Shown here in pieces: positions 1,636 to 54,402 of a DNA stretch of 64,000 nt. Location of the stretch: sequence record OQ689734.1; one strand, 5' to 3'. The position numbers and the translations under genes were made by a program. The number at the start of each line of letters is the position of its first letter. Positions within the stretch are counted from its first letter, which is position 1. Below the pieces are notes generated by a model. The model did not search any database, was not told the origin of the DNA, and was given only the letters and a program-made list of their open reading frames with translations. This DNA comes from Escherichia phage 4E8.

Positions 1636-1660
1636 GCCTCCTCTCGTGGGAGGCTTTTTG
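1636..1660 (+). terminator. rho-independent terminator-like hairpin (gcctcc...ggaggc + TTTTT)
   Basis: GC stem followed by a T-tract immediately after the stop of 965..1624. Confidence 0.5.
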
Positions 1661-1689
1661 TTATAACGATAATGTAGAAGGAGTATAAG

Positions 1690-2163
1690 ATGTTTGGAGA
1701 AAAAGGAGAACTCACGCCTGCACAGGTAGCTGAGATTACAGGAAGACTGCCCGGAGTAACGGAAGAACTTGAATCCAAGGGCATGGAACCAAGCACAGGG
1801 AAGTTCACTAAAGGTAATAAATTTGGACGTCCCAAAGGTAGTAGAGGTAAATTGACACAGCTCATGCTCGATCGTGTTGCTGCTAGTCATCTGTCTCCTG
1901 ATGAAGTGTTGATTCAGATTTATGAAGATCCAAATATTCCACCCGATCTTAGATTCAAGGCTGCAAGTAAAGTCGCTGATCTGGTATATCCTAAGGCAGC
2001 TTCTGTTGAGGTTAAGATTGAGGAAGAGAATGTAATCAACGAAGAATCATTGAATGCACAAATCAAGGACTTCTTGACTGGAGCACTTGGTGTCGACGTT
2101 ATGCCTCCAGAAGAAGACAACTCTGAGGACGCTGAAAAGGGGGAGGAAGCGGACGAGAGTTAA
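1690..2163 (+). CDS. putative terminase small subunit (by position and a basic GRPKGS segment)
   Basis: 157 aa ORF directly upstream of the large terminase; basic DNA-binding-like N-terminal part, acidic C-terminus; aaggag SD. Confidence 0.4.
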   Translation: MFGEKGELTPAQVAEITGRLPGVTEELESKGMEPSTGKFTKGNKFGRPKGSRGKLTQLMLDRVAASHLSPDEVLIQIYEDPNIPPDLRFKAASKVADLVYPKAASVEVKIEEENVINEESLNAQIKDFLTGALGVDVMPPEEDNSEDAEKGEEADES

Positions 2164-2324: not shown

Positions 2325-3866
2325 ATGTCATTAGATAAACAAATTTATGAAGCTCTAACTGGTAACAACCTTAGTGTAGACGAAAAGAAAGCACTATTGA
2401 ATATGTTGAAAGAGCGTGACCAATGGAGGAAGTATAATAGGATTTTGTCTTTCAAGGCGTATGACTTCCAAAAGAAATTTTATGCAGCAGGATTGAAGCA
2501 TCGCTTTAGATTCTTGTGTGCAGCGAACCGTGTTGGTAAATCTTATAGCGAGGCATACGAGTTTGCTTGTCATGTCACAGGTCGCTATCCAACTTGGTGG
2601 ACAGGATATAAATTTAAAAGACCTATCCTTGCATGGGCAGTTGGTATTACAGGGGATTCCACAAGGAAAGTATTGCAAAAGGAATTGTTTGGTACACCTA
2701 TCGGAAAGGATACAAATTTATTAGGGACAGGTGTCATTCCTCGTGATGCTATCGTCATTGACACGATAGAGCGAGATGGTAACAAACTTCAAATCGTACA
2801 AATCAAACATCAAAATGAAAGAGGAGAGTTTGACGGTTTAAGTACATTAGAATTCCGTTCAACCCAACAGGGTGAACACACATTGATGGGTGCAACAGTT
2901 GACTACATTTGGTTAGACGAAGAAGATCCATATGAATCTATGGCAATCTTCTCTCAGTGCGTAACACGTACACTTACAACTAAAGGTTTAGTTACTATTA
3001 CAGCTACACCAGAGAACGGTTTAACAGAGCTGGTGGATAAGTTTATGAAAGGTGAAGGAGATGAGAACACAGGTTCTCTGTATTTCCAGAATGCTTCTTG
3101 GTGGGATGCTCATGTAGATTTAGGTGGACATATCACTGACCAAGATATTAAAGACATGACTGAAGGTATCCCAACATGGCAGTTAGAGATGCGTTCAAAA
3201 GGTATGCCGTTGCTTGGTTCTGGTTTAATTTATGATGTATCAGATGACATGATTAAGTGTGATCCCTTTGAGATACCTGATACGTGGAAACGTGTTTGTG
3301 CTATTGATATTGGTATCGATCACCCGACAGCCGCTGTTTGGACAGCATATGATGCTAACACTGATACGATTTATGTTTATGACTGCTATAAAGAAGGTGG
3401 ATTTACTCCGGTGTATCATGCACCAGCTATTAATGGTCGTGGTCAGTGGATTCCAGTTATTCTTCCTCACGATGCCGATAATATTGAGAAGGGAAGTGGT
3501 TCGTCTGTTGCTCAATTCTATAAGAATGCAGGGGTTAATGTACAGAGTGAGACCTTCTACAACAAGATTGGAATGGATGGTAAGAAGAACTTCTTTGTAG
3601 AGCCGGGAATTACTGATATTCGTGAACGTATGATGTCAGGTCGTTTTAAAATCTTTAACATTGCTTCATGTGCTAAACTCTTTGAAGAGAAAGCTCGCTA
3701 TCACCGTAAGGTTGGCAAGATTGTTAAGGAACATGATGACTTGATGGATGCTATGCGATATTCAGCTTGTTCTGTAACACATCGTGGACGTAGTAAGCAT
3801 GATGCTAGTTATGGTAGTTCATCGCTTTATCAAGACAATATTAACAGATGGAATCAGACCTACTAA
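2325..3866 (+). CDS. terL: terminase large subunit
   Basis: 513 aa; Walker A-like FLCAANRVGKSY and Walker B-like IWLDEED in the N-terminal ATPase part; C-terminal nuclease-sized domain; located at the head of the morphogenesis module. Confidence 0.85.
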   Translation: MSLDKQIYEALTGNNLSVDEKKALLNMLKERDQWRKYNRILSFKAYDFQKKFYAAGLKHRFRFLCAANRVGKSYSEAYEFACHVTGRYPTWWTGYKFKRPILAWAVGITGDSTRKVLQKELFGTPIGKDTNLLGTGVIPRDAIVIDTIERDGNKLQIVQIKHQNERGEFDGLSTLEFRSTQQGEHTLMGATVDYIWLDEEDPYESMAIFSQCVTRTLTTKGLVTITATPENGLTELVDKFMKGEGDENTGSLYFQNASWWDAHVDLGGHITDQDIKDMTEGIPTWQLEMRSKGMPLLGSGLIYDVSDDMIKCDPFEIPDTWKRVCAIDIGIDHPTAAVWTAYDANTDTIYVYDCYKEGGFTPVYHAPAINGRGQWIPVILPHDADNIEKGSGSSVAQFYKNAGVNVQSETFYNKIGMDGKKNFFVEPGITDIRERMMSGRFKIFNIASCAKLFEEKARYHRKVGKIVKEHDDLMDAMRYSACSVTHRGRSKHDASYGSSSLYQDNINRWNQTY

Positions 3867-8599: not shown

Positions 8600-9123
8600 C
8601 AGTAGACAGTGTGACTGTTAGCCCTGCGTCTTTAGCAAGCCTAGAGACAGGGGCTACTCGGCAGTTCACTGCAAGCGCGGAGAAAAGTGATGGTTCTACC
8701 GAAACAACTGGCTTTACTTGGTCAGTGACAGGAGGTGGTTCTATCACTCAGTCGGGTTTGTATACTGCTCCGAGTGCGTCTCAATCCACTGATGTATCCA
8801 TTACTGCAACTTTAGAAGGTGTTTCTGGTACAGCAACCATTTCTGAAATTGTTGCTCCTGCTCCTACTATTGTAGCTAAGGGTCCAATTACGGGTAAAAC
8901 TGGTGGTTCTTCCACTAACTTCACTACCATGTTTACTGTAACTAATTCTACTGCTGCGGATTACACGTTTGTTGTAACCCCTACAGAAGCTGGTACAGTA
9001 AGCGCCGCTGGTGCGTTAACCTTAGATGCTGCTGCAAGTGGCGAAGTTACTGTTCAAGCAAGTTTGACAGCTGACCCATCCATCAATGCAACATGCACTT
9101 TTACTGGTGTAACACCTGCTTAA
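7544..9123 (+). CDS. predicted frameshift-extended capsid protein with C-terminal Big_2-type Ig-like domain(s), about 526 aa
   Basis: -1 frame after the slip reads GGGVTVDSVTVSPASLASLETGATRQFTAS..., a Big_2-like motif beginning exactly at the junction; the stand-alone ORF 8611..9123 starts with GTG and has no SD. Confidence 0.45.
8581..8587 (+). other. candidate -1 programmed ribosomal frameshift slippery heptamer G_GGA_AAG
   Basis: X_XXY_YYZ heptamer in the capsid zero frame 11 nt before the capsid stop; the -1 frame is open from 8521 to 9123. Confidence 0.5.
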
Positions 9124-9156: not shown

Positions 9157-9224
9157 TTTTAAGACCTATACAAGCTAGTGTGTAATGTATATTCTTTGTC
9201 TACATACAACTAGGAGGACAATCT

Positions 9225-9971
9225 ATGGCGATGCCAGACGTTCAAAACCCAATTAATACCTACGGATGGCTTAAGAAGGCTGTGTCCCTCTGGGCTGACC
9301 GTGATGACCCTGAATTTGTTAATCAAATTCCAAACTTTATTAACTTTGCAGAAAAGGAAATCTACCGTAATTTACGTATTCCTCCTCTGGAAAAAGAAGT
9401 CTATTTAGATATTAAAGATGGTGTGGCTTTTATTCCACCAGATTACTTAGAAGCTCAGTGGATGATGAGATCTAAAGATGGTTTAATCTTCCGTGTAACC
9501 TCTCTCGAAGAAGTGGATTGGCTCAAACGTAATAACTCAGTCAACCCAACCAATTGGAATCAGGGAGAAGTTGTCTTTGCTCGTTTAGGTAGCCGGTTTA
9601 TTTTCTACCCTGCAATTGAAGCAGATACTCCAGTTTACCCTGATGATGGTAGCCCTGAGATTCCAGCAGAGAACTCAGTTATTCTCAGCTATTATGCTGA
9701 CCCACCGGAATTCTGGGAAGATTCAGATACAAGCGCTATTCTTACTATTGCCCCAGAACTTCTTCTGTACTTCACCCTACGTCATGCTTGTCTCTTTGTT
9801 CAAGATGATAATGGTGTTCAGAAATGGTCAGCATTAGGAAAAGCTATCCTTGATGAAATAGTAGAGCAGAATAAGAAACAAGAGTACTCAGGTTCACCTT
9901 TAGTTATTCCTAACACGATTAGCCGTCTACATAGCTCTCGTGAAGTATATGGGATTCGTCGTTTTAGATAA
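9225..9971 (+). CDS. virion structural protein (possibly head-tail connector or adaptor; positional)
   Basis: 248 aa, strong SD aggagg, between capsid and tail-fibre genes. Confidence 0.4.
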   Translation: MAMPDVQNPINTYGWLKKAVSLWADRDDPEFVNQIPNFINFAEKEIYRNLRIPPLEKEVYLDIKDGVAFIPPDYLEAQWMMRSKDGLIFRVTSLEEVDWLKRNNSVNPTNWNQGEVVFARLGSRFIFYPAIEADTPVYPDDGSPEIPAENSVILSYYADPPEFWEDSDTSAILTIAPELLLYFTLRHACLFVQDDNGVQKWSALGKAILDEIVEQNKKQEYSGSPLVIPNTISRLHSSREVYGIRRFR

Positions 9972-26253: not shown

Positions 26254-26323
26254 TCTAAGACCTAAGTCCTATCTCTTATAATGTATATAGGAGGTAGGAC
26301 ATTTTTATTTATAAGGAGACGTT

Positions 26324-29300
26324 ATGGCTAATTTAAAATCGTGGGAAGAAGCTTCCAAAGCTCCTGCGTATCTGAATGCCTCTCCAGAGCAACAGGCTCA
26401 AATGAGAGAACAATACAAGGCAGCAGGGGGCACTATTCCTGAGACTCAACCACAAGAGCAACCACAACAAGAAGAACGAGGTGTTATTGGGGAGTTTGCT
26501 CAAGGTGTGTCTAACGCTCTTCAATCAGGTGGTGCTAACATTGCAGCTAGTGCTGCTAAAGGTTTAGGTGGGCTGGTAGAGATTGGTGAAAACCTAACTG
26601 GTTCGGAAACAAGCTATGGTAAGCGCATTCAAGAGAACTCTAAGCAATTGCTGGAAGAACGCTTATCCAAGATAGAAGATGGTTTTGGTAAAACAGCTGG
26701 CCAGTATGCTGGTGTTGCTGCTGATATTGGTTTGACAGTTGCAAACCCTGCTGTTGCTGCTGCTGTTATCGCAGCTCGTGAAACAGGTCGTGCTTATGCT
26801 GATCAAACTCCTAAAGAAGATGAAGATAAGTCAATCTTAGATGCTGCTCTTGTTGGTGGTGCTAACTACGCTGCTCAGAAGATACTTCCGGGCATGACTG
26901 GTACAGCTTCTACTACTCTAGGTCGTGTAGGACAAAGCGTAGCCTCTAACGCGGTTGCTGGTGCTAAGGGTGGTGCTATTGTTGGTGCTGCTGAAGCTCA
27001 GAACAAATATGGAGATGATACTACTCTAGCTAATGTCTTGGAAGGGGCTATTGAAGAAGGTGCACTCGGTGCCGCTTATGGTGGGGCGATTGGTGGGGTT
27101 CATGGGTTAATAAGTCGTCCTAGTCCTCAAGTGTTTGATCGTACTCCTGAGCATGTTAAGACTGACATTGCTGCTGAAGATGAGGCTATTCGTAAAGCTG
27201 CTAACGCTGATGAACTTCGTGAAGCCTATGCTAAAGCTGAGAATGCTAATGCTGCCTCTGCTTTAAACCTTCTGGATGAAAATGGTTTCCGAATCACAGA
27301 TGCAGTTGCTATGGACTCTCCTGCTGTTCAGCGTATCTTAAATACAGACCAAAGTCGTGCAGAGAAGGCTGCTACGGTTCAGAAAGATAGCTCTAACGTT
27401 CCCGGTCTTAATCCTTTAGCTTCTCCTAAGAAGACTCAAGGTAAAGCTTTTGCTGACAATGAATACAACCAGAAACAAGCTGTGGCAATGAAAGATGCAA
27501 TGGCTGACTACACTAAAGATAACACCAAAGCCCTTACTGATGTTCTAGACAATCTAGACCGAGAGTTAGTAGCTCTGAGAGCAAGTGGTGATTTTACTGG
27601 TAGTGCTATTGACATTAAAAACCGTACTCAAGCTGATCGTGATTTTATTGATGCTTATAAAACTTTTTACAGTGAAGCTAATCGTTTCAAAGCTCGTGAT
27701 GGTGAAGACCTAAACAACTTCATTGATAAAGCTACTCAGTTGCAGAAGCTCTCTGAAAATGTTTCTCCAGAAATGAAGAAGGCCATTGGTGGATTAAAGA
27801 AACTAAAAGGTATGCCTGAAGGTTTTAACCCTATCCAAGATGCTTTCACTCTGAATAATACAGCTAAGTTCATGAGTAACCAAGACCGTGGTTGGACCTC
27901 TCTGACTGATGACGGTTTTCGTGAAGCTCCGGCTCCTGTGTTAGTTAAGAATCCTCTCGGTGCAGCCAAGTATGTACTTAACCGCTTTACTTCCGATCGT
28001 GCTCGTGCTCAACGTGAGAAGCAACAGTCAGCTAATAGTGAAGCTATCCGCTCTTTGGCTAGGGCTGATTTAGAAGTACAACGAGCTAGGACTCAGGCTG
28101 AAGAAGCAAGAGCAAAAATGGAAGAAGAACCAACCACAGAAGACATCAAATTCCGTACTCAAAATGATGCACCTTCCGAACCGGTTCGTGAGGAGCCTTC
28201 TGCTACTACTGTGACGGAAGAAATTCCTTCCTCTCCAGCTCCAACTGAAACACCTCTTACTGCGAGGGATTTGGTTGCTCAAAGACGTGCTCTCCAACAA
28301 GCAGAGCTTAGACGTCAAGAAGCTGAAGCTGCTCAGGCTCAAGAAAGTGCTACACCAGAACCTGAACCACAGCAAGAAGCTCTTACAGCTAGAGAATTAG
28401 TAGCTCAGCGTAGGGCTGTAGCAGAGGCTAAGAAACGTCAAGAGGCAGAAGAAGCAGAACGTGCTAAAGAAGCTCCTGAGGAAGCCGTAGAAGAGCCTAA
28501 AGAGAAACCTGAGCCATTACCTGCTCGTGCTCCTAAAGCTCCTGAGAAGGCTCCTGAGCCTGTTAAACCGTCACTTGGTGTAGAGCGTCTAGCTTCTATG
28601 TCAACTGCTGCTCGTCAAGCAACGAAAGACCGTGCTGATCGATTTGCTCGTTCTTTGTATTCGGCTGCTGCTAAAGCTAAAGCCACTGCGGAAAACTTCC
28701 TTTCTTACAAAGGAGATCCTAAAGAGCTTATGCGTCGTATCCGTCAGGAAGACCAAGCAAACAACACACAGCGTCATGAAGAGATGGCTAGAAATCAACT
28801 AGCTTCTCAGCAAGGCATTGCTTCTGCTAAATCTCAACATGTTCGTGCTTCTTTTGCTGATTGGGTGAAAGAACGTGGGTTGCCTTCTGATATCGCTACT
28901 AAAGCCTTACGGGCTGAAGAGAAAGGTTTAGGTGGGAACGTCACAAGTCTAGATTCACTGAAGCGAAGAGCTGAGCGTTTATATCAGAAACAAAGAGATG
29001 ATGAGTTTGACCGCCTCTATCGAGAGGCTCTGGAAGAGAATAAAGCTTTTGATAAGAGAGATGCTCCTAAACTGGTAGACCAGAAGAAAGAGCTTCAGGA
29101 TGAAATTGGTGCGTTGCTTGATGCTGAACCGTTACGTCCTGCTCAGAAAGATGCTATGCGTAGGATTATGGAAGACTTCGTGGAGAGTAAGTTTAAATCT
29201 TCAGAGAGAGCTGGAAGGGTTGAGGCTTTGGAAGTTGGTCAGATGAAGGATGTGTGGGATGGGTTTATTAATACCTATAACCGAGAAGTTAACATGTTCA

Positions 29301-30769
29301 ACAAGGCTAACAAGAATTCTCAATACGAAGCAGCAGCTAAACACTTGCAAGCACGTCAAGAACGTCTTGAGACGCTCCGTAACAGAGCTAAAGCTCGCAG
29401 TGATGCTAAGGCAGCCATGGAGGCTGAGAAGCAGTCCTTGGAGGCTATAGCGGCTCAGAAATCAGAGATAGAGAAGATGTTCAAAGAATTGCCTGAAAGT
29501 GTCAGAGAGGCTCAGGAAGGGCGTACTTTGAAACAGCTTGCTGCTCACCATGATAAGAACTCTCCAGTACCACCAGAGCGTTTCCGTAGTATCATTGAAC
29601 GTATTCACAACGCTGAGAGTGATTACCTCGATCGCAAACGTCGTTTGACCGAAGCAGAGGAAGATGCTCGTGAAGCTAAGTGGAATAGGATGTATGAACA
29701 GGCTGAGGAAATGAACCGTAAGTTTGATATCGACTCTAGAGTGAAGAGAGATAAGGCTCTGAAGGAAGCTCAAGAACGAGAGAATGACTTAATGGCAGTT
29801 CAACGTCAGCGTGATGACATTCATAAGCGTTTAGTCAATACTCTGGAAGAGAAGGGAGTTTCTAGGGAAGATGCTGAAGCGTATGCTGGGTCTTACATGG
29901 ATAATCGGTATGCTTTGTTAGAGAAACCAATGACTCCAGTGGAACATCAGAATGCTCGTGCTCGTATTGAATCTGACGTAGAGAAGTTTGTTAAGAAATA
30001 CGAAACAGCTACTCCAATCGAAAGAGAGATTGCTAAAGCAACTGGTGATGCAGATGGAAAACCTTCTGACTTAGATGCAGAAACATTAAAAGCTATTGAA
30101 GATGCTCGTAAAGTTGATTCCGATTTTAAGAAACTCTTAGATGAAGAGAAGGAAATGGAGAAGATTCGTTCAGCTCTACCTGAAGATGAAAGATCTCAGG
30201 CGAACTCTGATATTCTGGAAAGTATTAAGAAACAGGAAGATGATTTTGCTAGCAAAGCAGAGAAAGCTTTTATTGAAGGGAAAGATTTGCAGGAGTTAGC
30301 AAGTGTTGCAGAAGTTCTAGATAGGGTTCATGGTGCAGACAAGGCTGGTAACAACCGTCGATTTGTACGTGCTCTACAGACTGCTGCCGAGAACAAGAAA
30401 CGTTATGGGGATAATCCAGTGGCTTGGTTTAGTGCTGATGATTACTCTGCTATTGCGAAACTTGGTGCTGCTTCGGCAGGTGGTAACAAATCTCGAGCAC
30501 TTGAGAAAATCTTTGGTTCTACAGCAGAACAAGCTAAAGGGAAACTTTTAGGGCGGGATGATGTAGCTAAGATTAGACGTGTGATTGAAGCGAATCCCAA
30601 TGTTAAGATTCCTTCTTACAAGACAACTACTCGACAAGAGTACATGCAGTTCTTGGAGAAGTATAATGACGAGGGAGAGTTGAAAGTCAAACGTGGTTCT
30701 CTGTCTGACAAGTTGGAGAGAGGTAAGCGTCAAGCTAAACTCCGTGTTAGAGTTCGAGCTAAGGAGTAA
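26324..30769 (+). CDS. giant internal virion/ejection protein (tape-measure-like)
   Basis: 1481 aa, largely alpha-helical/coiled-coil, internal near-duplicate segment (LTARDLVAQRRALQQAE / LTARELVAQRRAVAEAK); last gene of the plus-strand block. Confidence 0.5.
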   Translation: MANLKSWEEASKAPAYLNASPEQQAQMREQYKAAGGTIPETQPQEQPQQEERGVIGEFAQGVSNALQSGGANIAASAAKGLGGLVEIGENLTGSETSYGKRIQENSKQLLEERLSKIEDGFGKTAGQYAGVAADIGLTVANPAVAAAVIAARETGRAYADQTPKEDEDKSILDAALVGGANYAAQKILPGMTGTASTTLGRVGQSVASNAVAGAKGGAIVGAAEAQNKYGDDTTLANVLEGAIEEGALGAAYGGAIGGVHGLISRPSPQVFDRTPEHVKTDIAAEDEAIRKAANADELREAYAKAENANAASALNLLDENGFRITDAVAMDSPAVQRILNTDQSRAEKAATVQKDSSNVPGLNPLASPKKTQGKAFADNEYNQKQAVAMKDAMADYTKDNTKALTDVLDNLDRELVALRASGDFTGSAIDIKNRTQADRDFIDAYKTFYSEANRFKARDGEDLNNFIDKATQLQKLSENVSPEMKKAIGGLKKLKGMPEGFNPIQDAFTLNNTAKFMSNQDRGWTSLTDDGFREAPAPVLVKNPLGAAKYVLNRFTSDRARAQREKQQSANSEAIRSLARADLEVQRARTQAEEARAKMEEEPTTEDIKFRTQNDAPSEPVREEPSATTVTEEIPSSPAPTETPLTARDLVAQRRALQQAELRRQEAEAAQAQESATPEPEPQQEALTARELVAQRRAVAEAKKRQEAEEAERAKEAPEEAVEEPKEKPEPLPARAPKAPEKAPEPVKPSLGVERLASMSTAARQATKDRADRFARSLYSAAAKAKATAENFLSYKGDPKELMRRIRQEDQANNTQRHEEMARNQLASQQGIASAKSQHVRASFADWVKERGLPSDIATKALRAEEKGLGGNVTSLDSLKRRAERLYQKQRDDEFDRLYREALEENKAFDKRDAPKLVDQKKELQDEIGALLDAEPLRPAQKDAMRRIMEDFVESKFKSSERAGRVEALEVGQMKDVWDGFINTYNREVNMFNKANKNSQYEAAAKHLQARQERLETLRNRAKARSDAKAAMEAEKQSLEAIAAQKSEIEKMFKELPESVREAQEGRTLKQLAAHHDKNSPVPPERFRSIIERIHNAESDYLDRKRRLTEAEEDAREAKWNRMYEQAEEMNRKFDIDSRVKRDKALKEAQERENDLMAVQRQRDDIHKRLVNTLEEKGVSREDAEAYAGSYMDNRYALLEKPMTPVEHQNARARIESDVEKFVKKYETATPIEREIAKATGDADGKPSDLDAETLKAIEDARKVDSDFKKLLDEEKEMEKIRSALPEDERSQANSDILESIKKQEDDFASKAEKAFIEGKDLQELASVAEVLDRVHGADKAGNNRRFVRALQTAAENKKRYGDNPVAWFSADDYSAIAKLGAASAGGNKSRALEKIFGSTAEQAKGKLLGRDDVAKIRRVIEANPNVKIPSYKTTTRQEYMQFLEKYNDEGELKVKRGSLSDKLERGKRQAKLRVRVRAKE

Positions 30770-31553: not shown

Positions 31554-31731
31554 AACCAACATCCATATCAGCATCTTCCCAAATACGTTTGTTAATACGA
31601 TGTGATTCTTTTTCAGCACGAGGGATACGTCCAGTACGACGATCAAATGCTTGATGTTTAATCTTCTGGTCTTTGCGAGACTCACGATTAGAGGAATTTT
31701 CATCATACGAACGATAATCAAACTTACCCAT
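31540..31731 (-). CDS. small basic hypothetical protein
   Basis: 63 aa charged ORF with protein-like composition. Confidence 0.3.
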   Translation of the reverse strand: MGKFDYRSYDENSSNRESRKDQKIKHQAFDRRTGRIPRAEKESHRINKRIWEDADMDVGYGEG

Positions 31732-32261
31732 TATTCAGTTCCTTCTGTTTTTAAGTAATCACGATCCATATAGTAGGTTTTAACGGAATCTTGAGATGGT
31801 GTTGGGTCAAAAACTACCAACATACTCCCTTTTGTGTTTCCGTTAACAGGGACTCTAGTATCAGCTCTTACAAAACTAATACGTCCTCCTGTTATAAACA
31901 TTATACTATTAGCATTTATCCTACACTTATCAAACCATCGAACTGAAGTATCCGCTGGAATAAGTAGAACTGTTCCAACATTGTGGTCCTGTTGATTTCT
32001 AATTGCCAAGTCAACCCACGGTCCAATATCTGAATATGGTGGATTACACCAAACATAACTACCTCTAAACACTTCAAAGTCATAAGTCAGAGCATTATCT
32101 TCCTCTGATATGAAAGTGCTAACTAGGTGATTGTCTTGACTTGCTGCAATATCACATACGAAGTGTTTATTCTTATTAACATAATTAAACAACCACTGAG
32201 GTGTTTGCCACAAATCTCTTATATCTACCGGAGTGTGTGAGCTTCTATAATCTGTTACCAT
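31731..32261 (-). CDS. DNA N6-adenine methyltransferase (phage Dam-like)
   Basis: 176 aa; WCNPPYS catalytic motif (NPPY) typical of N6-adenine methyltransferases. Confidence 0.65.
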   Translation of the reverse strand: MVTDYRSSHTPVDIRDLWQTPQWLFNYVNKNKHFVCDIAASQDNHLVSTFISEEDNALTYDFEVFRGSYVWCNPPYSDIGPWVDLAIRNQQDHNVGTVLLIPADTSVRWFDKCRINANSIMFITGGRISFVRADTRVPVNGNTKGSMLVVFDPTPSQDSVKTYYMDRDYLKTEGTE

Positions 32262-33100
32262 GTTTTATCCAACCAAGTCCATTCGAATAAGTCACCTTCA
32301 GCTTGTCCAACGAATAGCAATCGAGCATTTTCTAACATCTTAGCTTCTGCTTCTTCCTCGAACCTCTTATAGTATTCCATTCGTATAATATGATAAAGAG
32401 TCCACTTATCGAATACCTTCTCAATAAGTTTGATAGCAGCTTTGCTACCAATACCCTTACGACGCATAACTAAATTACCGCCCCACATCATTTCAACTTT
32501 CTCACCACACCCGGGGATGTTATCTGTACTATCCCCAATCAACATCTGATAGAAGAAGTTCTGCCATGCTACTTCCTCTGATACATAATGAGGGGGTACT
32601 TCTTTCTGTCGTTCACCACAAGCCCAGCGATAATGCCATCCGGGAGTGATTAACAAATCCTTATCACGAGTACAGATGATTGTGTTCTTTTCTATACGCT
32701 GTCGTTCAGCGAGTGCATCATCTGCTTCTCTGCCAAACACTTCAACATACTGGTAATGTTCTTTGATATAATCACTAACGTTCTGCCAGTGATGAGGTCT
32801 TTCTCCCGGTGGTCGATTAGCTTTATAACCTTGCTGCTTAGCAATATCAAACCGAAAATTACCACCTTCGCTGAAATAGAAGACAGTTTTCTCACAACCT
32901 GACCTTGCAATGATTACGTCAATTTTGTGTTGAAGGCGTTCGATCAAGAATCCATAATCAACTGGAACACGACCTGTGTCTAGGAAAGGATGCTCTTGTG
33001 TAAGAGCACCAACCTCATACCGTAGAACATCTGCATCCACAATTGCTACTTCAGGATAGATTACATCAGACATAGAGATCTCTCCGTGTCCTTTCAACAA
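32255..33100 (-). CDS. 5'-3' exonuclease / flap endonuclease
   Basis: 281 aa; acidic metal-binding clusters (DADVLRYEVG, EADD) and a helix-hairpin-helix-like GDSTDNIPGCGEKV...GIGSKAA segment. Confidence 0.7.
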   Translation of the reverse strand: MLKGHGEISMSDVIYPEVAIVDADVLRYEVGALTQEHPFLDTGRVPVDYGFLIERLQHKIDVIIARSGCEKTVFYFSEGGNFRFDIAKQQGYKANRPPGERPHHWQNVSDYIKEHYQYVEVFGREADDALAERQRIEKNTIICTRDKDLLITPGWHYRWACGERQKEVPPHYVSEEVAWQNFFYQMLIGDSTDNIPGCGEKVEMMWGGNLVMRRKGIGSKAAIKLIEKVFDKWTLYHIIRMEYYKRFEEEAEAKMLENARLLFVGQAEGDLFEWTWLDKTW

Positions 33101-33662
33101 TCCAATTTAAATAATCTACTGCATCTTCTACGGTAGAGTCGTTTACTAAATAGTATGTGTTTCTCTGACTGCCTTCGATGTAAGAACGAGAGTCTCCTTC
33201 AAATGAGCAGTCATCACGAAGAATCTGAACTACCTGAACATGGAAATGCTCTTCCAGTTCTGAAACCTCTGCTTTGAATCCACCGTCAGAGAAGACGATA
33301 ACATCTTTCTGCCCTAACAACTGTTGCTTGATACTACTAACAGCCAACTTACCCATACAGGTATCACCAAACATTGGCTTCAAGTAGCTCTCACTAGTTG
33401 CAATCATCAAATCTCGAACTGACTTACCGCCCCACTCAGGACGGCTTCGTTCTTTCCATTCTCGGTCGTTGTACAGCTCCATGAACCCATAAAGAGGGAG
33501 ACCTAATGCAGCAGCAGCCACTCGATACATAGGCTCCTTAAAAGCCTTTACATGCGGTCTAAACTCATCATTACCAGTGGTCTTCTCTAACCAAGCATTA
33601 GCGATTGTATCTTTACCACAACCCGGAGGTCCATTCAGAATTACTACTAATGGTTTACTCAT
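33066..33662 (-). CDS. P-loop nucleotide kinase (dNMP kinase-like)
   Basis: 198 aa; Walker A VILNGPPGCGKDT at the N-terminus. Confidence 0.55.
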   Translation of the reverse strand: MSKPLVVILNGPPGCGKDTIANAWLEKTTGNDEFRPHVKAFKEPMYRVAAAALGLPLYGFMELYNDREWKERSRPEWGGKSVRDLMIATSESYLKPMFGDTCMGKLAVSSIKQQLLGQKDVIVFSDGGFKAEVSELEEHFHVQVVQILRDDCSFEGDSRSYIEGSQRNTYYLVNDSTVEDAVDYLNWIVERTRRDLYV

Positions 33663-34312
33663 TATTGAATCATCCCTTGAAGATCTTCTTTATCAAAGTG
33701 CTTCTCTACTACAGCTTCATACAGATCACGATTCTCTGCATAACGGCGATAGAAGGTTCCGTGTGAAATTCCCAGCTCCTGCTGGATGTGATCATGTGGG
33801 ATACCGAGAAAGAGCATTGAGAACATGCTTGCCATCTTACGGTTTTCCATAATATCACTCAAGTCTTGGAAGAAGAAAAAGATTCTAGATTCCAAGAACG
33901 GGTCTCCAGTAGAATCATGCTTATCCATCGCAATCTCTAAAGGACTTTCCCATGAATTCATCTCAGGAGGTCTAAACATATCAGCCTCTGGAATAGAGTA
34001 GATACGTCGGTCTCCAACTGTCTGACGATTAGAACGAATCGACCAGATGATATTCTTGACACGATAAGTCATGTGCTCAATATCTTTTTCATCAGTGAGC
34101 AGAAGTTCTTCTTGCTTTGCAAATACAAAACGCCAAGCGTTCAGTAACACTTCCTGAGCAACATCCTCTGCCTCGTGATAATCTTTAATGTCATACATAA
34201 AATACTTATGCACAACTTTCCAGTTCTCTCGATAAAATTCATCGAAGGTTGGATAATACTTAATAGGAATGCCATGAATACGATAGCGTGTAGGTGTTGT
34301 CTTTTTCTTCAT
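33662..34312 (-). CDS. putative phage sigma factor (ECF-like sigma-70 family)
   Basis: 216 aa; region-2-like [19 protein letters not shown] and C-terminal HTH-like [16 protein letters not shown]; no phage RNAP gene in the window. Confidence 0.5.
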
Positions 34313-34336
34313 AAGTCATCCTTAACTTACTTTACA

Positions 34337-34561
34337 TTAAACTACACAGAACAAATACATTGCTGTGTCAGGACAAGGGATGTGATCACTAGGTTGCCTA
34401 ATTCTATCCCATTCATCATCTTCTGCTATATAATAAGCCCAATAAGACTCACCATCGTTGATGAAGAATTTGAATGTTCGTCCCCAAATCTGATTATTAT
34501 GTTCCCATACTGCATGAAACTGAGTAACACCTTCTGGTATTGTAAGTTCCGCTCTGATCAT
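34337..34561 (-). CDS. hypothetical small protein
   Basis: 74 aa ORF. Confidence 0.3.
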   Translation of the reverse strand: MIRAELTIPEGVTQFHAVWEHNNQIWGRTFKFFINDGESYWAYYIAEDDEWDRIRQPSDHIPCPDTAMYLFCVV

Positions 34562-35061: not shown

Positions 35062-35086
35062 CGAAAAAAGCCACCCGAAGGTGGCT
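35062..35086 (-). terminator. minus-strand terminator (agccacc UUCG ggtggc + U-run)
   Basis: inverted repeat gccacc cgaa ggtggc preceded on the plus strand by AAAAAA; downstream of the 35109..35849 gene. Confidence 0.5.
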
Positions 35087-35108: not shown

Positions 35109-35849
35109 TTAGAATGGGCTATCATCTTCTTCAAAGGTTGATTGCGGCTCTTCATTAATGGTAGGGATGCTTGGAGTAGCATCTTTCTGTTCAGTATCAG
35201 AAGCTTTAGTAACTTCACGACCAGCCAGAGGGATATTCTTAGCATCGTTAGCTTGAGTCAAGAGGTTACGTTGGAATGGGAAGATTGCTTGATAAGCAGC
35301 TAAGTTAGCATCAGTCTCAGCATACGGTTCGAAGAAGATCAACTCACTACGAGGAGCACCTACCGCGTCACGATATTTAGTCGGGATTGGAGTGATGCTT
35401 TTAATGGAGTTTTTCTTCTCACCAGCTTTATTGGTGTAAGAGTTAACCAGAATGTTAACAGGCTGACCTAACAGCATATCTTTAAACCAACCCAAATCAC
35501 CTTTCAGTGCTTGAACACTTGGGTCGATCATTTTAATCAGATTTAGAATACCAGAGTTCTTAGCTCGTGGGTTTACATCGAAAGATTTAAACTGGCAAGC
35601 AGGACGAGGGTCCAGAGATTTGCCTTCATTATCAGTCCCTGTTGCATCTACGCCAATCAGCTCAAAAGCTAAGTCCATACGGAAAGCTGGGTTCTTAGGG
35701 GTAACTGCTTTGGTCTTAGGGTCAATCCAAGGGTCACGATTGTGAACACCTAAACCTACAACACGAACAATACGTGCTTCGTACTCACCATCAGGGATTA
35801 CATCGTAGTTGGATTTACGGGATACAGACAGTTCAGGGATCATAGACAT
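35109..35849 (-). CDS. putative single-stranded DNA-binding protein
   Basis: 246 aa; acidic C-terminal tail ending ...FEEDDSPF, like the acidic C-terminal Phe tails of bacterial and T7-type SSBs; sits in the replication region. Confidence 0.45.
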   Translation of the reverse strand: MSMIPELSVSRKSNYDVIPDGEYEARIVRVVGLGVHNRDPWIDPKTKAVTPKNPAFRMDLAFELIGVDATGTDNEGKSLDPRPACQFKSFDVNPRAKNSGILNLIKMIDPSVQALKGDLGWFKDMLLGQPVNILVNSYTNKAGEKKNSIKSITPIPTKYRDAVGAPRSELIFFEPYAETDANLAAYQAIFPFQRNLLTQANDAKNIPLAGREVTKASDTEQKDATPSIPTINEEPQSTFEEDDSPF

Positions 35850-36394
35850 ATTAATATTTCCTTATATAAATTTAAGATTGTTGCTCTCTTTGAGCGGTTT
35901 GTATACTATATACATTACACTTATACAGATAAGGTTCTATTATACTATAACCTTTTTGGTAGTAGATAATAACAAATAGTAATGTATATATGGTATAGCT
36001 AGTAAAGCTATTGCAGGCTTGTATATTGGGCAATTCATAGAATCCCTTGCAAGTACCGAAGGGCAGGAGCCACCTGCGAGATAAAAATAGAGAATTAAGG
36101 AATCCTTGATTTAGGTTGTAGGGACTCCTAGGGACTTTGATTCTCTATTTAAAAGAATATTAATTACTTACTACCTAAATAATTAACTAACTTACTTAAA
36201 CCAAATTCAAGAATAATAGATAAAAAGATTATTCCTAAGAAAGCTAAAAAGTAAAGGATATAAGTTACCATTCAAGTAAACCTTTAAAGTTAGTTTGTTC
36301 TACTATCCTCTGATAACGAAGATTAGAATCAGCTTGTTTCTTTAACATCTCATTATATTTATCTCTGATAGAGTCTTTATAAACTACAGGTTCT

Positions 36395-36898
36395 TTAAAT
36401 AACGAGATCTTGTTCTTTTCTTCTTTCATCGAAAACCTTCCTAATCTCTTGCAGAGAAACAGCTTTATAATTAATTTGCTCCATTGATGTACAGAAATAT
36501 CTCCAATCATCAATTACATGATTATGGGTATGAGCATAAATATTAAACTTCCCTCTCATTTCATCAGTGTGAATAGGAATATGAGTTACCCAAAACTCTT
36601 TGTACTTATAATCACCACTGATGTGTCTAAAGACTTTCATCATATCAGGGAGAAGTTCTAATCTGTCATGATTTCCTAAGACAAGATGTTTCTCTCCTTT
36701 TACTTCAGCGATAATATCAAGTGCATATTTCTCAAACACCCAATCACCTGTAAAGAAAGTTTTATCACGTTTAGTAACATGATCAAACGCTGCTAAGATA
36801 GCTTTGTCGTGTTCTTCAATACTACTAAACTTCTTCCTAAAGTTACAGATGTTACGATGGCCTAGGTGACCATCACCTGCAAAATAAACTTCAGCCAT
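36395..36898 (-). CDS. calcineurin-like metallophosphoesterase
   Basis: motifs FAGDGHLGH, FFTGDWV, LGNHDR, AHTHNH match the metallophosphatase signature (GDxHG ... GDxxDRG ... GNH[DE]). Confidence 0.6.
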   Translation of the reverse strand: MAEVYFAGDGHLGHRNICNFRKKFSSIEEHDKAILAAFDHVTKRDKTFFTGDWVFEKYALDIIAEVKGEKHLVLGNHDRLELLPDMMKVFRHISGDYKYKEFWVTHIPIHTDEMRGKFNIYAHTHNHVIDDWRYFCTSMEQINYKAVSLQEIRKVFDERRKEQDLVI

Positions 36899-42655: not shown

Positions 42656-42699
42656 AACTCCTTAATATATCAGTGTACACTAAGGAGTATACATTATAT

Positions 42700-44622: not shown

Positions 44623-44931
44623 TTAGATAACCTTGTGCTTGTAGATGCTAGGGTTGAAGTAATGCAACCAGTTTATGTATTGTTTCTGTTCAAGGTAGTG
44701 TCTGCAATCATGACAAAAAGCATGACCCAAACCTGTTTCCTCGTTCAGCTTGAAGTTGATAAGAAGCTTCTGCTTTTGACAGAAGCTACATGCTTTAGTG
44801 GGCTTCACGTAGTGCATCCCATGAGATTGGGAAAAGTTTACGAAGCTCTTCATCAACAGTTGATGCGAACACTCGTACTTCATACTGAGCATGGTCGGAC
44901 AGTCGCTGACGACATAACTCTGACCAGCCAT
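44623..44931 (-). CDS. hypothetical Cys-rich (zinc-binding-like) protein
   Basis: 102 aa; CSFCQK...CHDCRH; 5' end overlaps the thyX 3' end in another frame. Confidence 0.35.
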   Translation of the reverse strand: MAGQSYVVSDCPTMLSMKYECSHQLLMKSFVNFSQSHGMHYVKPTKACSFCQKQKLLINFKLNEETGLGHAFCHDCRHYLEQKQYINWLHYFNPSIYKHKVI

Positions 44932-45445
44932 ATAAAGAACCTGTCCACACCCACTCAGTGATCATACCTTGAGGTAGAACGAATCGGGCTTGCTCTGGAG
45001 CAATAAACTTAATCAACTCATCATATGACTCAAGAGCTGTTTCATATGCCCGATTAATCAGAACTAGTGCAGAGTTTTGCGCTCCTGTGGTGAGGAGATT
45101 CCCCGCACCTGCATGGAGGTCCGAAGGTCTTTCAAAAATCTCTTTAGGGATGAAGAGTTCAACTGCTCCATCTTTATACCGCCGGGACATTTCGTTCCAC
45201 GAGAATCCAACTTGATGCTTGCCCAGCTGTCTCGCAATTGCGATTGGCGCTTTGCATCGGAAGCTAATTGTCGGATGGCGGAATGGTGTGACATGCTTTT
45301 CTCTGGCAAGGAACTTGATAAGGCGTTCATCTCGTTCATTTAACTCTCCTTCACGAGTAACCCCAAAGGAAACTCGAGCTGCATTAACAACAGATTTATC
45401 AGAACCCATTGCTTCAATTAGTGTTGCTTGTAATTGTTCGTTCAT
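44795..45445 (-). CDS. thyX: flavin-dependent thymidylate synthase (ThyX) homolog with divergent signature motif
   Basis: 216 aa; AARVSFGV...HVTPFRHPTISFRCKAPIAIARQL...FSWNEMSRRY and SDHAQYEV are ThyX-like, but the canonical RHR of the RHRx7S motif reads KHQ. Confidence 0.7.
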   Translation of the reverse strand: MNEQLQATLIEAMGSDKSVVNAARVSFGVTREGELNERDERLIKFLAREKHVTPFRHPTISFRCKAPIAIARQLGKHQVGFSWNEMSRRYKDGAVELFIPKEIFERPSDLHAGAGNLLTTGAQNSALVLINRAYETALESYDELIKFIAPEQARFVLPQGMITEWVWTGSLYGWSELCRQRLSDHAQYEVRVFASTVDEELRKLFPISWDALREAH

Positions 45446-45459
45446 CCTTGAATTCTTCC

Positions 45460-45675
45460 TTAGTAATGAATCTTTTTATAAACCATGTTGCTTCCACTTT
45501 CTGTTTCAATCCCTTTCTGGATTGTAATCTTAGAAGCACCAGTGTTAACAATTTTTAAAGCTCGCTTAAAGCGGCGAGCCTCTTTCCGTGTGGAGTATGT
45601 TGAGAAGCTAGGGATTGTGCTATCAAAATTAAACCACTTAACTACCCAAAAAGTAATCCAAGGTTTCTTTTCCAT
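45460..45675 (-). CDS. small protein, member of a 4-copy paralog family
   Basis: 71 aa; shares W..V...TRKEAR..K..LK and C-terminal ...HY with 47542..48163 genes. Confidence 0.4.
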   Translation of the reverse strand: MEKKPWITFWVVKWFNFDSTIPSFSTYSTRKEARRFKRALKIVNTGASKITIQKGIETESGSNMVYKKIHY

Positions 45676-47469: not shown

Positions 47470-47541
47470 TTCACTCTCTCCTGTTCAATACAATATTCTT
47501 ATACTGTATATACATTTGAGAGTGATCATATCTACTACCAA

Positions 47542-53977: not shown

Positions 53978-54163
53978 TTATTCTACTTCGAAGTGTTTGA
54001 TCACACCAGTCAGTACATCAGATTGGAACGTACCTACTAGCTCTGTGCCTCGGAAAAAGTTAACACTTGTTCCAAGTGATTCAAAGCGATCTGCTTGAAT
54101 GTCCAGAGATTGAATATTTCCTTCTGCTGACATTGTACGAAACATGATTGTGTATTTATTCAC
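53978..54163 (-). CDS. hypothetical small protein
   Basis: 61 aa ORF. Confidence 0.3.
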   Translation of the reverse strand: MNKYTIMFRTMSAEGNIQSLDIQADRFESLGTSVNFFRGTELVGTFQSDVLTGVIKHFEVE

Positions 54164-54402
54164 AGACTTGTTACTCCCTTATCTGCTTGTGCAATTGCGA
54201 TGATACGCTCAGCACATTCCATTGAATATTTATCACCTCGTTTGAGGAAGGTGATGATTGCAGAGAACTGATTACCAATCATTCTCTTATTTGTGATACC
54301 AAACTCTTCACAGAGTTGGTTGATAGCTTTACGAGAGCCTACAATCAGAGGCTCTTTTTCTTCGGTCATTCCACGGCTGATCAAATCTTCGATAGACAAC
54401 AT
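54160..54402 (-). CDS. hypothetical small protein
   Basis: 80 aa ORF, 4-nt overlap with the downstream gene. Confidence 0.3.
   Translation of the reverse strand: MLSIEDLISRGMTEEKEPLIVGSRKAINQLCEEFGITNKRMIGNQFSAIITFLKRGDKYSMECAERIIAIAQADKGVTSL

Follow-up and report, generated by a model that had tools for sequence, protein, structure and literature searches.

Does the reading frame at 33662-34312 of Escherichia phage 4E8 encode a sigma factor, and is the RNA polymerase (RNAP) of the host redirected by it? A sequence-only reading had made both claims from a region-2-like segment and a C-terminal helix-turn-helix (HTH)-like segment, and had seen no phage RNAP gene. The window, that is the whole stretch of DNA that was analysed, comprises 64,000 nt of the phage genome (OQ689734.1), approximately its first 64 kb. 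It is related to the phages MLP3, UKE3, IME267 and SU7 at 92-97% nucleotide identity. Judged by its sequence, the source phage is a phiEco32-like coliphage of the Gordonclarkvirinae, with Suseptimavirus as the nearest genus. The phiEco32-type arrangement that had been suggested was borne out by this taxonomy and by synteny with phiEco32-like phages, and the TerL, separate exonuclease and ThyX genes named along with it were all located by Pfam/PHROG matches:

2325-3866, TerL, with Terminase_6N/6C matches, followed by the portal, scaffold and major capsid protein genes
32255-33100, 5'-3' exonuclease
44804-45463, ThyX (Thy1, E=1.2e-42)

The gene that raises the question is the following:

33662-34312, minus strand, sigma-factor gene, counterpart of phiEco32 gene 36 (ATG start, 216 aa)

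Its product is 80.5% identical to phiEco32 gp36 across 215/216 aa; the differences affect 43 of the 216 aligned positions and include a 2-residue insertion in the linker. Using phmmer, PDB entry 9m7y_F was matched with E=3.5e-118, and the match to phrog_1740 ("RNA polymerase sigma factor") has an E value of 1e-43. It shares 99.5% identity with proteins that carry the annotation "RNA polymerase sigma factor" in phages like Bas87. Orthology to gp36, the match to 9m7y_F and the fold comparison described below confirm that the protein is sigma-factor-like, and we conclude with high confidence that the gene encodes a phage sigma factor, the gp36 counterpart, which acts as in the phiEco32 scheme. 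The system is already known, phiEco32 gp36 having been studied biochemically and by cryo-EM, and the sequence-only reading was right. Studies of phiEco32 gp36 and gp79 were reportedly made by Savalia in 2008 and Pavlova in 2012, as cited in the literature.

The absence of a phage RNAP gene from the window was upheld by a Pfam/PHROG scan, in which none of the 13 ORFs of at least 400 aa had an RNA-polymerase match. The remaining ORFs of 250-400 aa lie in stretches that are collinear with phiEco32 tail, ejection and amidoligase genes. An RNAP gene in the unseen remainder of the genome had been named as a finding that would speak against the proposal. In the counterpart region of UKE3, the closest complete relative, no CDS above 300 aa is present in the approximately 13 kb beyond the window, the largest being 300 aa. 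It is nevertheless conceivable that the phage also has an unrecognised RNAP, for example a virion-delivered one, encoded in the 1481-aa ORF at 26324-30769 or in the portion of the genome beyond the window, and that the sigma factor is only part of its strategy. Phage RNAPs of high divergence, those of the N4 and crAss types, are missed by Pfam, the 555-aa, 1481-aa and 405-aa ORFs have no Pfam match and fall into PHROGs of unknown function, and the 1481-aa protein is without a PDB match. However, DxDGD/DxDxD motifs are absent from the 1481-aa and 555-aa ORFs, and the former contains none of the simple T7-type patterns that were tried and is rich in Ala, Glu and Lys, as expected of an internal or ejection protein. 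With no catalytic motifs, no PDB match and no Pfam match, a hidden RNAP in this ORF was rejected. The UKE3 region also argues against such a polymerase, as does the literature: phiEco32-like phages are described as lacking an RNAP of their own (PMC4281155), and phiEco32 uses the sigma70-RNAP for early genes and the gp36-RNAP for middle and late genes (PMC12276001, PMC8948821). The phiEco32 RefSeq ORFs called "RNA polymerase" and "polymerase" have 42 and 87 aa and are too short for polymerases. An additional phage RNAP is thus very unlikely.

Profile searches with the sigma ORF gave matches below threshold, so that the assignment as a sigma factor is carried by orthology to a solved structure and by fold comparison, not by Pfam. 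Pfam Sigma70_r2 (PF04542) matched residues 26-61 with E=1.1e-3 and 19.2 bits (gathering score 24), about 17 sigma-70/ECF models of NCBIfam matched residues ~22-63 (best E=3.8e-6), all under their cut-offs, and TIGR02937 (sigma70-ECF) reached 20.5 bits vs a cut-off of 42.9. Within the family, 14 of the 18 members matched Sigma70_r2 at E<=0.01 (best 1.9e-5). The Pfam profile search of the sigma ORF gave no match to Sigma70_r4, and Sigma70_r4_2 was matched by one of 18 relatives (E=0.0036). The proposed profile check for sigma70 regions 2 and 4 was in this way answered weakly and below threshold for region 2, whereas region 4 went undetected.

The AF2 model of the protein consists of two helical domains, a sigma2-like N-terminal domain (~residues 8-99) and a sigma4-like C-terminal domain (~124-215), which are connected by a disordered linker (99-122). 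Foldseek searches with this model returned 9m7y_F first, and ranks 2-25 were all sigma-factor entries, nearly all of them ECF chains. The ECF sigma matches were aligned over ~185 columns covering both domains with probabilities of up to 1.00; as the two domains are free in their orientation, TM-scores were low (0.23-0.30). Model and Foldseek comparison agree on the two-domain sigma2/sigma4 fold of the sigma-70 family. Two segments are of particular relevance here:

34133-34168, minus strand, region-2.2-like helix (residues 49-60), contacting the RNAP clamp helices according to its gp36 equivalents (PMC12276001)
33698-33796, minus strand, HTH-like part of the C-terminal domain (~residues 173-205), including Y188 and R189

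Residues 49-60 are the region-2-like segment that had been noticed before, and the sub-threshold profiles of sigma region 2 overlap them. The C-terminal HTH-like segment gave weak Pfam matches (DUF1492 at 148-191, E=0.027; TetR_N at 176-201, E=0.12), and the corresponding part of the solved phiEco32 gp36 forms a sigma4-like domain (PMC12276001).

Comparison with the published gp36 contact residues showed that all 20 are kept in the sigma ORF, 19 of them identical and one replaced (M138 to L). Identity extends to all five acidic clamp-helix residues (D44, E47, E49, D50, E54), of which E49, D50 and E54 are described as acidic clamp contacts of gp36 (PMC12276001), and to all eight -10 recognition and melting residues (E79, H80, Y83, R84, W90, S91, S94, N95). 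The flap-tip-helix contacts (M138, I142, F166, L167, F204) and -35 contacts (Y186, R187) are identical in six of seven cases, M138 being the exception. Y186 and R187 of gp36 read the -35 region (PMC12276001); they correspond to Y188 and R189 of the 4E8 protein, which are invariant in the family. In the alignment of 18 members, with identities down to 43%, most contact residues are invariant, among them D44, E47 and D50.

These residues also bear on the reading of the ORF as an ordinary HTH transcription regulator (TetR- or XRE-like) that works with the sigma70 holoenzyme and is no sigma subunit. The weak HTH-type matches of the C-terminus would suit such a protein (besides TetR_N, PDB 2eh3 "Transcriptional regulator" with E=0.017 for the family profile), as would the sigma profiles staying under curated cut-offs and the name "YerC" that JGI gives to one homolog. 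However, W90 and Y83, which act in -10 melting, and the clamp-helix residues are conserved, the structural neighbours over both domains are ECF sigma factors and not TetR proteins, and the 80%-identical gp36 holds the sigma position in the solved open complex and drives transcription with core RNAP alone (PMC12276001). The solved structure with gp36 in this position contradicts an ordinary HTH regulator, an identity that is highly improbable.

A phage sigma factor of the gp36 type should have its promoters in the same genome. The gp36 promoter element TAATGTATA is present in five exact copies in the window vs 0.64 expected, and five copies were reached in 0/100 shuffles. Together with AAATGTATA at 47509 and TAATGTAGA at 1670 they make up seven sites that are one-to-one syntenic with phiEco32 sites. 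Six of these candidates are equivalent to published phiEco32 promoters (the list was reconstructed from PMC4281155, PMC8948821 and PMC12276001); they lie in intergenic gaps, each facing its downstream gene:

1670-1678, plus strand, TAATGTAGA, late promoter candidate, P6 equivalent, directly 3' of a terminator hairpin and 12 nt before ATG 1690
9183-9191, plus strand, TAATGTATA, late promoter candidate, P13 equivalent, flanked by ORFs 8611-9123 and 9225-9971
26279-26287, plus strand, TAATGTATA, late promoter candidate, P26 equivalent, located in a terminator-like hairpin's loop, with the 1481-aa ORF downstream
35909-35917, minus strand, TAATGTATA, middle promoter candidate, P40 equivalent, with ORF 35109-35849 downstream
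42688-42696, minus strand, TAATGTATA, middle promoter candidate, P58 equivalent, in the gap 42656-42699
47509-47517, minus strand, AAATGTATA, middle promoter candidate, P68 equivalent, in the gap 47470-47541, with TGGTAGTAGATA upstream

Since one-mismatch matches to TAATGTATA occur at chance frequency (20 vs 18.9 expected), it is synteny that carries the weaker sites. Sequence and context of the 1670 site are as in phiEco32 at 1677; a late promoter was placed between CDS 3 and 4 of SU10 (PMC4281155), and SU10_04 is equivalent to phi32_6 (PMC8948821 Table S2). The 9183 site matches phiEco32 site 9101, and both have TAAGACCTA upstream. At 26279, the arms of the hairpin are changed on both sides in L014 and L015. 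The phiEco32 promoter P26 is gp36-dependent and gp79-stimulated in vitro, and P68 is the promoter present in the cryo-EM open complex (PMC12276001).

The 35909 site is invariant in 10 phages of three genera, and the sigma gene follows further downstream on the same strand, which makes a positive feedback loop likely. The loop is not assured, since a hairpin is located between this promoter candidate and the sigma gene:

35069-35086, minus strand, terminator-like CTTCGG hairpin with a T-run after it, separating the gene 40 homolog from the spanin/sigma genes

Nothing pointed to a promoter of its own immediately upstream of the sigma gene. The sequence TAATGTAAA at 34331-34339 (minus strand) was discarded as a sigma-gene promoter, being a one-mismatch match and hence of the class that occurs at chance frequency, and scans for sigma70-type promoters and terminators at 33-37.5 kb stayed at shuffle level.

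In phiEco32, gp79 is an inhibitor of the sigma70 and sigmaS holoenzymes and a co-activator of the gp36 holoenzyme (PMC12276001). A counterpart is encoded in the window:

54160-54402, minus strand, phiEco32 gp79 counterpart, 80 aa (tblastn 76% identity, E=2e-40)

The protein matches PDB 9m7y_G with E=3.6e-37. Contact residues were taken from PMC12276001 and compared by alignment; those that touch gp36 and RNAP are identical or conservatively replaced (L6I, V10I, L29I, W36F). The alternative that the sigma gene is decaying or has lost its function, with other factors setting the timing of transcription, is practically negligible. Its surroundings are unlike those in phiEco32: gene 36 of that phage is flanked by gene 35 (with a GTP-binding domain) and gene 37 (with a macro domain), both of them absent around the 4E8 ORF, which has a Dam methylase and a 74-aa ORF nearby. 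However, the frame is full-length with all functional residues kept, identity of the protein to its equivalents in the 12 closest among the phage records listed amounts to 97.7-99.5%, and gp79 and the cognate promoter set are conserved.

The steps by which an active sigma factor would take over transcription come from phiEco32 experiments and were applied to 4E8 by orthology; core binding, promoter use, timing and feedback are those expected from that phage. The gp36 protein forms a holoenzyme with E. coli core RNAP that transcribes middle and late genes (PMC12276001, PMC8948821), and by orthology this supports the claim that the host RNAP is redirected by the 4E8 protein. The early genes, most of which lie beyond the window at the distal end of the minus-strand block, would be transcribed by the host sigma70-RNAP. 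In the middle phase the phage would make the sigma factor and the gp79 counterpart. The latter is expected to sit on the clamp of RNAP, its N-terminal end reaching into the RNA exit channel, thereby displacing region 4 of sigma70 or sigmaS, and this displacement would shut off host and early phage transcription. Core RNAP would then be bound by the phage sigma factor, with the acidic region-2-like helix (EDVAQEV...) on the clamp helices and the compact sigma4-like C-terminal domain binding the flap-tip helix and helix 1 of gp79. The N-terminal domain would read and melt one strong element only, tAATGTAtA, whose centre lies at about -11.5, and the C-terminal domain would touch the -35 region (G-37 and A-34 in P68). 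Transcription would start from the middle promoter candidates at 47509, 42688 and 35909 (all minus strand) and from the late structural ones at 1670, 9183 and 26279 (all plus strand), with positive feedback on the sigma gene probable through the candidate at 35909.

The AT-rich region at 35.85-36.26 kb had also been considered a promoter location. GC contents are 25-28% at 35830-36010 and 20-23% at 36130-36280. Exact gp36 elements at 35909-35917 (minus strand) and 35980-35988 (plus strand) support this part of the claim; on the minus strand, however, 36164-36271 is an ORF for a hydrophobic peptide of 35 aa, and therefore only 35850-36163 of the AT-rich region is non-coding. The plus-strand element and its neighbourhood contain two features:

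35957-35988, plus strand, bipartite gp36-type promoter candidate, TGGTAGT at 35957-35963 and AATGTA 24 nt on, in the exact TAATGTATA at 35980-35988
36058-36150, no strand assigned, near-invariant non-coding core of ~95 nt downstream of this candidate

The -35-like element and the -35/-10 register of the plus-strand candidate are the same as in P68. The candidate is antisense to the flanking genes, is invariant in 10 phages, with variants kept in metagenomic relatives, and has a phiEco32 counterpart at 36704; a published equivalent was not found in the literature. The core at 36058-36150 is nearly invariant even in metagenomic relatives with a sigma factor only 70-76% identical. We tentatively suggest that a seventh gp36-type promoter at 35957-35988 directs transcription through this core, giving a non-coding RNA that is antisense to genes 41-42, and that the RNA or the DNA element might regulate the middle-to-late switch or the start of replication. 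Compared with shuffles, both strands of the element fold only moderately better (z about -2.2 and -2.4), and one compensatory pair was seen among 29 predicted pairs, in a covariation analysis with almost no power. Rfam gave no match in the whole window at gathering thresholds nor in 35800-36400 at E<=1, ARAGORN predicted no tRNA, and nothing relevant was found in the literature on antisense RNA, origins or RNA-Seq in phiEco32-like phages. A replication origin is made less plausible by the frequency of ACTTACTTAA, which is not enriched (90 vs 94 expected), and by the 35-aa ORF that occupies the AT-rich 36164-36271.

Re-identifying a known takeover system, gp36 plus the sigma-displacing gp79, in another phiEco32-like phage matters little in itself. 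It has value for annotation because the gene is still labelled "hypothetical protein" in many relatives. What is added is that the Suseptimavirus branch has kept the whole set of promoters and every contact defined by the structure, and that a conserved, apparently undescribed plus-strand promoter candidate adjoins a hyper-conserved non-coding element.

The closest known system is that of phiEco32, a Kuravirus and thus of another genus than the Suseptimavirus-like 4E8. The structures of gp36 and gp79 are available as PDB 9M7Y and 9M7Z, with gp36 as chain F of the E. coli RNAP open complex (PMC12276001). Both phages have the late genes rightward and the middle and early genes leftward, the same promoter element is found at syntenic positions, and both proteins have counterparts in 4E8, the gp79 counterpart being 2 residues shorter at the N-terminus. 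Salmonella phage 7-11, likewise a phiEco32-like podophage of C3 morphotype, has a phage sigma factor, gp47; late genes are driven by it from promoters whose positions in the genome are equivalent. However, gp47 and gp36 share only about 15% identity, gp47 was probably acquired independently and acts on a bipartite promoter (GTAAtg-N16-aCTA), and phage 7-11 has neither a gp79 partner nor a middle gene class (PMC8948821).

Group IV (ECF) sigma factors such as SigE, SigH and SigL of M. tuberculosis and sigmaE of E. coli have the sigma2-linker-sigma4 architecture in common with the 4E8 protein. They are its best structural neighbours after gp36 and share the region 2.2-like motif (weak profile matches), with sequence similarity staying under curated family thresholds. 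Compared with them, gp36 has its N-terminal helix 1 rotated by about 70 degrees, a short recognition helix is found in its more compact sigma4-like domain, and binding of the flap-tip helix takes another orientation (PMC12276001). ECF promoters consist of a -35/-10 pair, whereas the main gp36 element is an extended -10-like 9-mer. An analogy has also been drawn to AsiA/MotA of T4, where one small phage protein disables sigma70 region 4 and a second one provides promoter specificity, likewise giving a fast early-to-middle switch (PMC12276001). T4 keeps sigma70 in the holoenzyme, whereas the gp36-type system replaces it with a phage sigma factor.

The open reading frame (ORF) at 33662..34312 named in the sequence-only reading exists; it is on the minus strand, starts with ATG and encodes 216 amino acids. 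Pfam Sigma70_r2 was aligned to residues 26-61 (E=1.1e-3), the region-2-like segment named earlier being residues 49-60, but the score of 19.2 bits is below the 24-bit gathering score. About 17 NCBIfam sigma-70/ECF models were found on residues ~22-63 (best E=3.8e-6), all under their own cut-offs, and TIGR02937 covers residues 23-191 with 20.5 bits versus a cut-off of 42.9. The profile evidence on this segment is a weak, coherent sigma signal. The proposed C-terminal HTH-like segment gave faint HTH-type matches to DUF1492 and TetR_N (Pfam) and nothing stronger by profile. Across 18 family members, Sigma70_r2 was matched by 14 at E<=0.01, and region 4 was essentially undetectable by sequence in the profile search; of the expected sigma-70 domains, region 2 was recovered in this protein below threshold and region 4 was not.

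In PHROGs the protein belongs to phrog_1740 'RNA polymerase sigma factor' (E=1e-43), and tblastn detected it in 98 phage records, several of them 99.5% identical, which are labelled in some cases 'RNA polymerase sigma factor' and in many 'hypothetical protein'. Identity to gene 36 of phiEco32, which encodes the sigma factor gp36, is 80.5% (tblastn). In the Protein Data Bank it matches chain F of 9M7Y (E=3.5e-118), the 'gp79-dependent RNAP promoter open complex'. Among 5.8 billion proteins searched, only 20 clusters were recovered, the lowest at 45% identity.

In gp36, the clamp helices are bound by D44, E47, E49, D50 and E54, the -10-like element is read and melted by E79, H80, Y83, R84, W90, S91, S94 and N95, the flap-tip helix is contacted by M138, I142, F166, L167 and F204, and the -35 region is touched by Y186 and R187 (PMC12276001). 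Pairwise alignment showed that 19 of these 20 residues are identical in the window protein, M138 being replaced by L, and that in length the two proteins differ only by two extra residues in the linker of the window protein. Most contact residues are invariant across an alignment of 18 of the 20 clusters. The AlphaFold model, built from the 18-member family alignment, predicts helical domains at 8-99 and 124-215 separated by a disordered linker (mean pLDDT 72.7). Foldseek against the PDB returned 9m7y_F as top match (E=7.5e-20); each of the 24 rows that follow is a sigma-factor entry, almost always an ECF sigma chain, with both domains aligned. Taken together, the ORF product is established as a two-domain, highly divergent sigma-70 superfamily protein, because of structure and experiment on its counterpart gp36 and not because of curated profile thresholds.

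The gp36 partner protein gp79 has a counterpart as well:
54160-54402 (-), gp79 counterpart, 80 aa, 76% identical; 9m7y_G, E=3.6e-37
In alignments against the contacts described in PMC12276001, each hydrophobic residue gripping gp36 (L6, L9, V10, M14) or the beta' N-terminus, and each salt-bridge arginine (R26, R68), is either unchanged or conservatively substituted.

The likeness to phiEco32 drawn in the earlier reading holds. Megablast with three parts of the window matched about 100 podophages of E. coli and Shigella, all from the subfamily Gordonclarkvirinae; MLP3, vB_EcoP-101114UKE3 (UKE3), IME267, SU7 (genus Suseptimavirus) and HC-25922 are the best matches (92-97% identical). The genes are arranged collinearly with those of phiEco32:
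2325-3866, TerL; next come portal, scaffold and major capsid protein (SU10-type Pfam families)
32255-33100, 5'-3' exonuclease
44804-45463, ThyX
In the alignment to UKE3 (75747 nt), window 161 corresponds to 202 and window 64000 to 62516; the window therefore covers approximately the initial 64 kb of a genome of ~76 kb. Directly downstream of the exonuclease gene lies a Dam-type N6-adenine DNA methyltransferase (31731-32261(-); Pfam Dam, E=1.2e-49), whereas phiEco32 has HNH endonuclease genes there. Dam is found at the same place in some metagenomic relatives (L014, L015, L017, L019).

The published gp36 promoter element is tAATGTAtA (PMC8948821, PMC12276001). Five exact copies are present in the window versus 0.64 expected, and none of 100 shuffles reached five; one-mismatch matches in the window were at chance level without excess. 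The five exact copies and two further sites pair one-to-one with phiEco32 sites.

Promoter candidates in the window and phiEco32 counterparts (P6, P13, P26, late; P40, P58, P68, middle)
1670-1678 (+), P6-type, TAATGTAGA; phiEco32 1677 (+)
9183 (+), late P13 site; phiEco32 9101 (+)
26279-26287 (+), TAATGTATA; phiEco32 26014 (+), P26
35909 (-), exact copy, P40; phiEco32 36632 (-)
35980 (+), exact TAATGTATA, plus-strand site; phiEco32 36704 (+)
42688 (-), P58; phiEco32 42937 (-)
47509 (-), AAATGTATA; phiEco32 46861 (-), P68

Six of the seven lie in short intergenic gaps and are oriented toward the downstream gene; they correspond to the promoters summarised in PMC4281155, three of them late and three middle. 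The AT-rich region that had been flagged as a candidate promoter site contains two of the exact copies, 35909(-) and 35980(+), which supports this part of the interpretation. By their -35 region, the sites at 9183, 26279, 35909, 35980, 42688 and 47509 divide into two classes that share one register. Class one, TGGTAGT or TGGAATC (T-38 G-37 G-36 n A-34), is shared by the P68, P58 and plus-strand sites; it puts G at -37 and A at -34, the two bases for which the structure shows contacts. Class two, TAAGACCTA (-38 to -30), belongs to the late sites P13 and P26, with P40 similar to it. The classes may be tied to middle versus late timing, or to gp79 dependence.

The P26-equivalent element sits in a hairpin loop (GTCCTATCTCTTA / TAGGAGGTAGGAC, then ATTTTTAT; 26262-26310(+)), an arrangement in which the terminator of one gene seems to overlap the promoter of the gene after it. 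Its arms are altered on both sides in L014 and L015 (GTCCTA...TAGGAC versus GCCCT...AGGGC). Within 1637-1692(+), the P6-type site follows a strong terminator hairpin, GCCTCCTCTCGTGGGAGGCTTTTT, and its end is 12 nt from the ATG at 1690; if transcription started 6-8 nt past the motif, the mRNA would be almost leaderless, beginning within the AGGAG ribosome-binding site.

The plus-strand candidate (TGGTAGT from 35957, AATGTA 24 nt on) runs antisense to the flanking genes and does not appear in the set of six published promoters, so far as PMC4281155, PMC8948821 and PMC12276001 allow that set to be reconstructed. Ten phages from three genera carry it without change, and metagenomic relatives retain its bipartite form; 35957-36160(+) corresponds to phiEco32 NC_010324 36681-36884. 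The site is directed into a ~95-nt non-coding core (36058-36150), near-invariant across three genera. Identity to phiEco32 at 36001-36400 is 94-99%, versus 73-84% in most flanking coding DNA, and the core is 90-92% identical even in metagenomic contigs with a sigma only 70-76% identical. Variation is limited to a compensatory pair in a 5-bp hairpin (GCAGG/CCTGC to GCTGG/CCAGC), a loop base and a coordinated direct-repeat change, both AGGGACT copies losing one G together in some phages. Rfam gave no match to the core. The core might encode a gp36-dependent antisense or non-coding RNA, serve as a bidirectional terminator, bind a protein or take part in replication. A strongly hydrophobic 35-aa ORF makes up part of the 'AT-rich region' (36164-36271(-), MVTYILYFLAFLGIIFLSIILEFGLSKLVNYLGSK, gene 41 homolog); this ORF is deleted in phages ECBP2 and Paul.

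As in the earlier reading, no phage RNA polymerase (RNAP) was found in the window: among the ORFs of >=400 aa, 13 in number, an RNAP domain was detected in none. The longest ORF left unassigned (1481 aa, phrog_14629) lacks catalytic-type motifs. Located at 26324-30769(+), it is Ala/Glu/Lys-rich, without Pfam or PDB match, and the counterpart of phiEco32 gp26; relatives' versions are 1349 to 1754 aa long, and a role as internal or ejection protein is probable. The genome part beyond the window, read in UKE3 as closest complete relative, holds only small ORFs (<=300 aa), and phiEco32-like phages are described as being without RNAP (PMC4281155). The phiEco32 RefSeq entry labels a 42-aa ORF 'RNA polymerase' and an 87-aa ORF 'polymerase' (NC_010324 38784-38912 and 75656-75919). 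Both are too short for polymerases and look like annotation artefacts, which could mislead automated phage-RNAP checks.

By orthology to phiEco32, early genes would be transcribed by host sigma70-RNAP; gp79 would next push sigma region 4 off the RNA exit channel, turning off sigma70- and sigmaS-dependent initiation. Core RNAP would be bound by the phage sigma and initiate at tAATGTAtA promoters, with gp79 helix 1 stabilising this initiation. The sigma gene is located downstream of the 35909(-) candidate, but a terminator-like hairpin with a CTTCGG loop and T-run (AGCCACCTTCGGGTGGCT, 35069-35086(-), after the gene 40 homolog) falls between this promoter and the spanin and sigma genes, making positive feedback on the sigma gene plausible but unproven. 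Similar hairpins, of the CUUCGG type, have been discussed for phage 7-11 (PMC8948821). The sigma-factor finding is correct. This system has already been described in detail, with a cryo-EM structure from 2025, and GenBank contains near-identical proteins.
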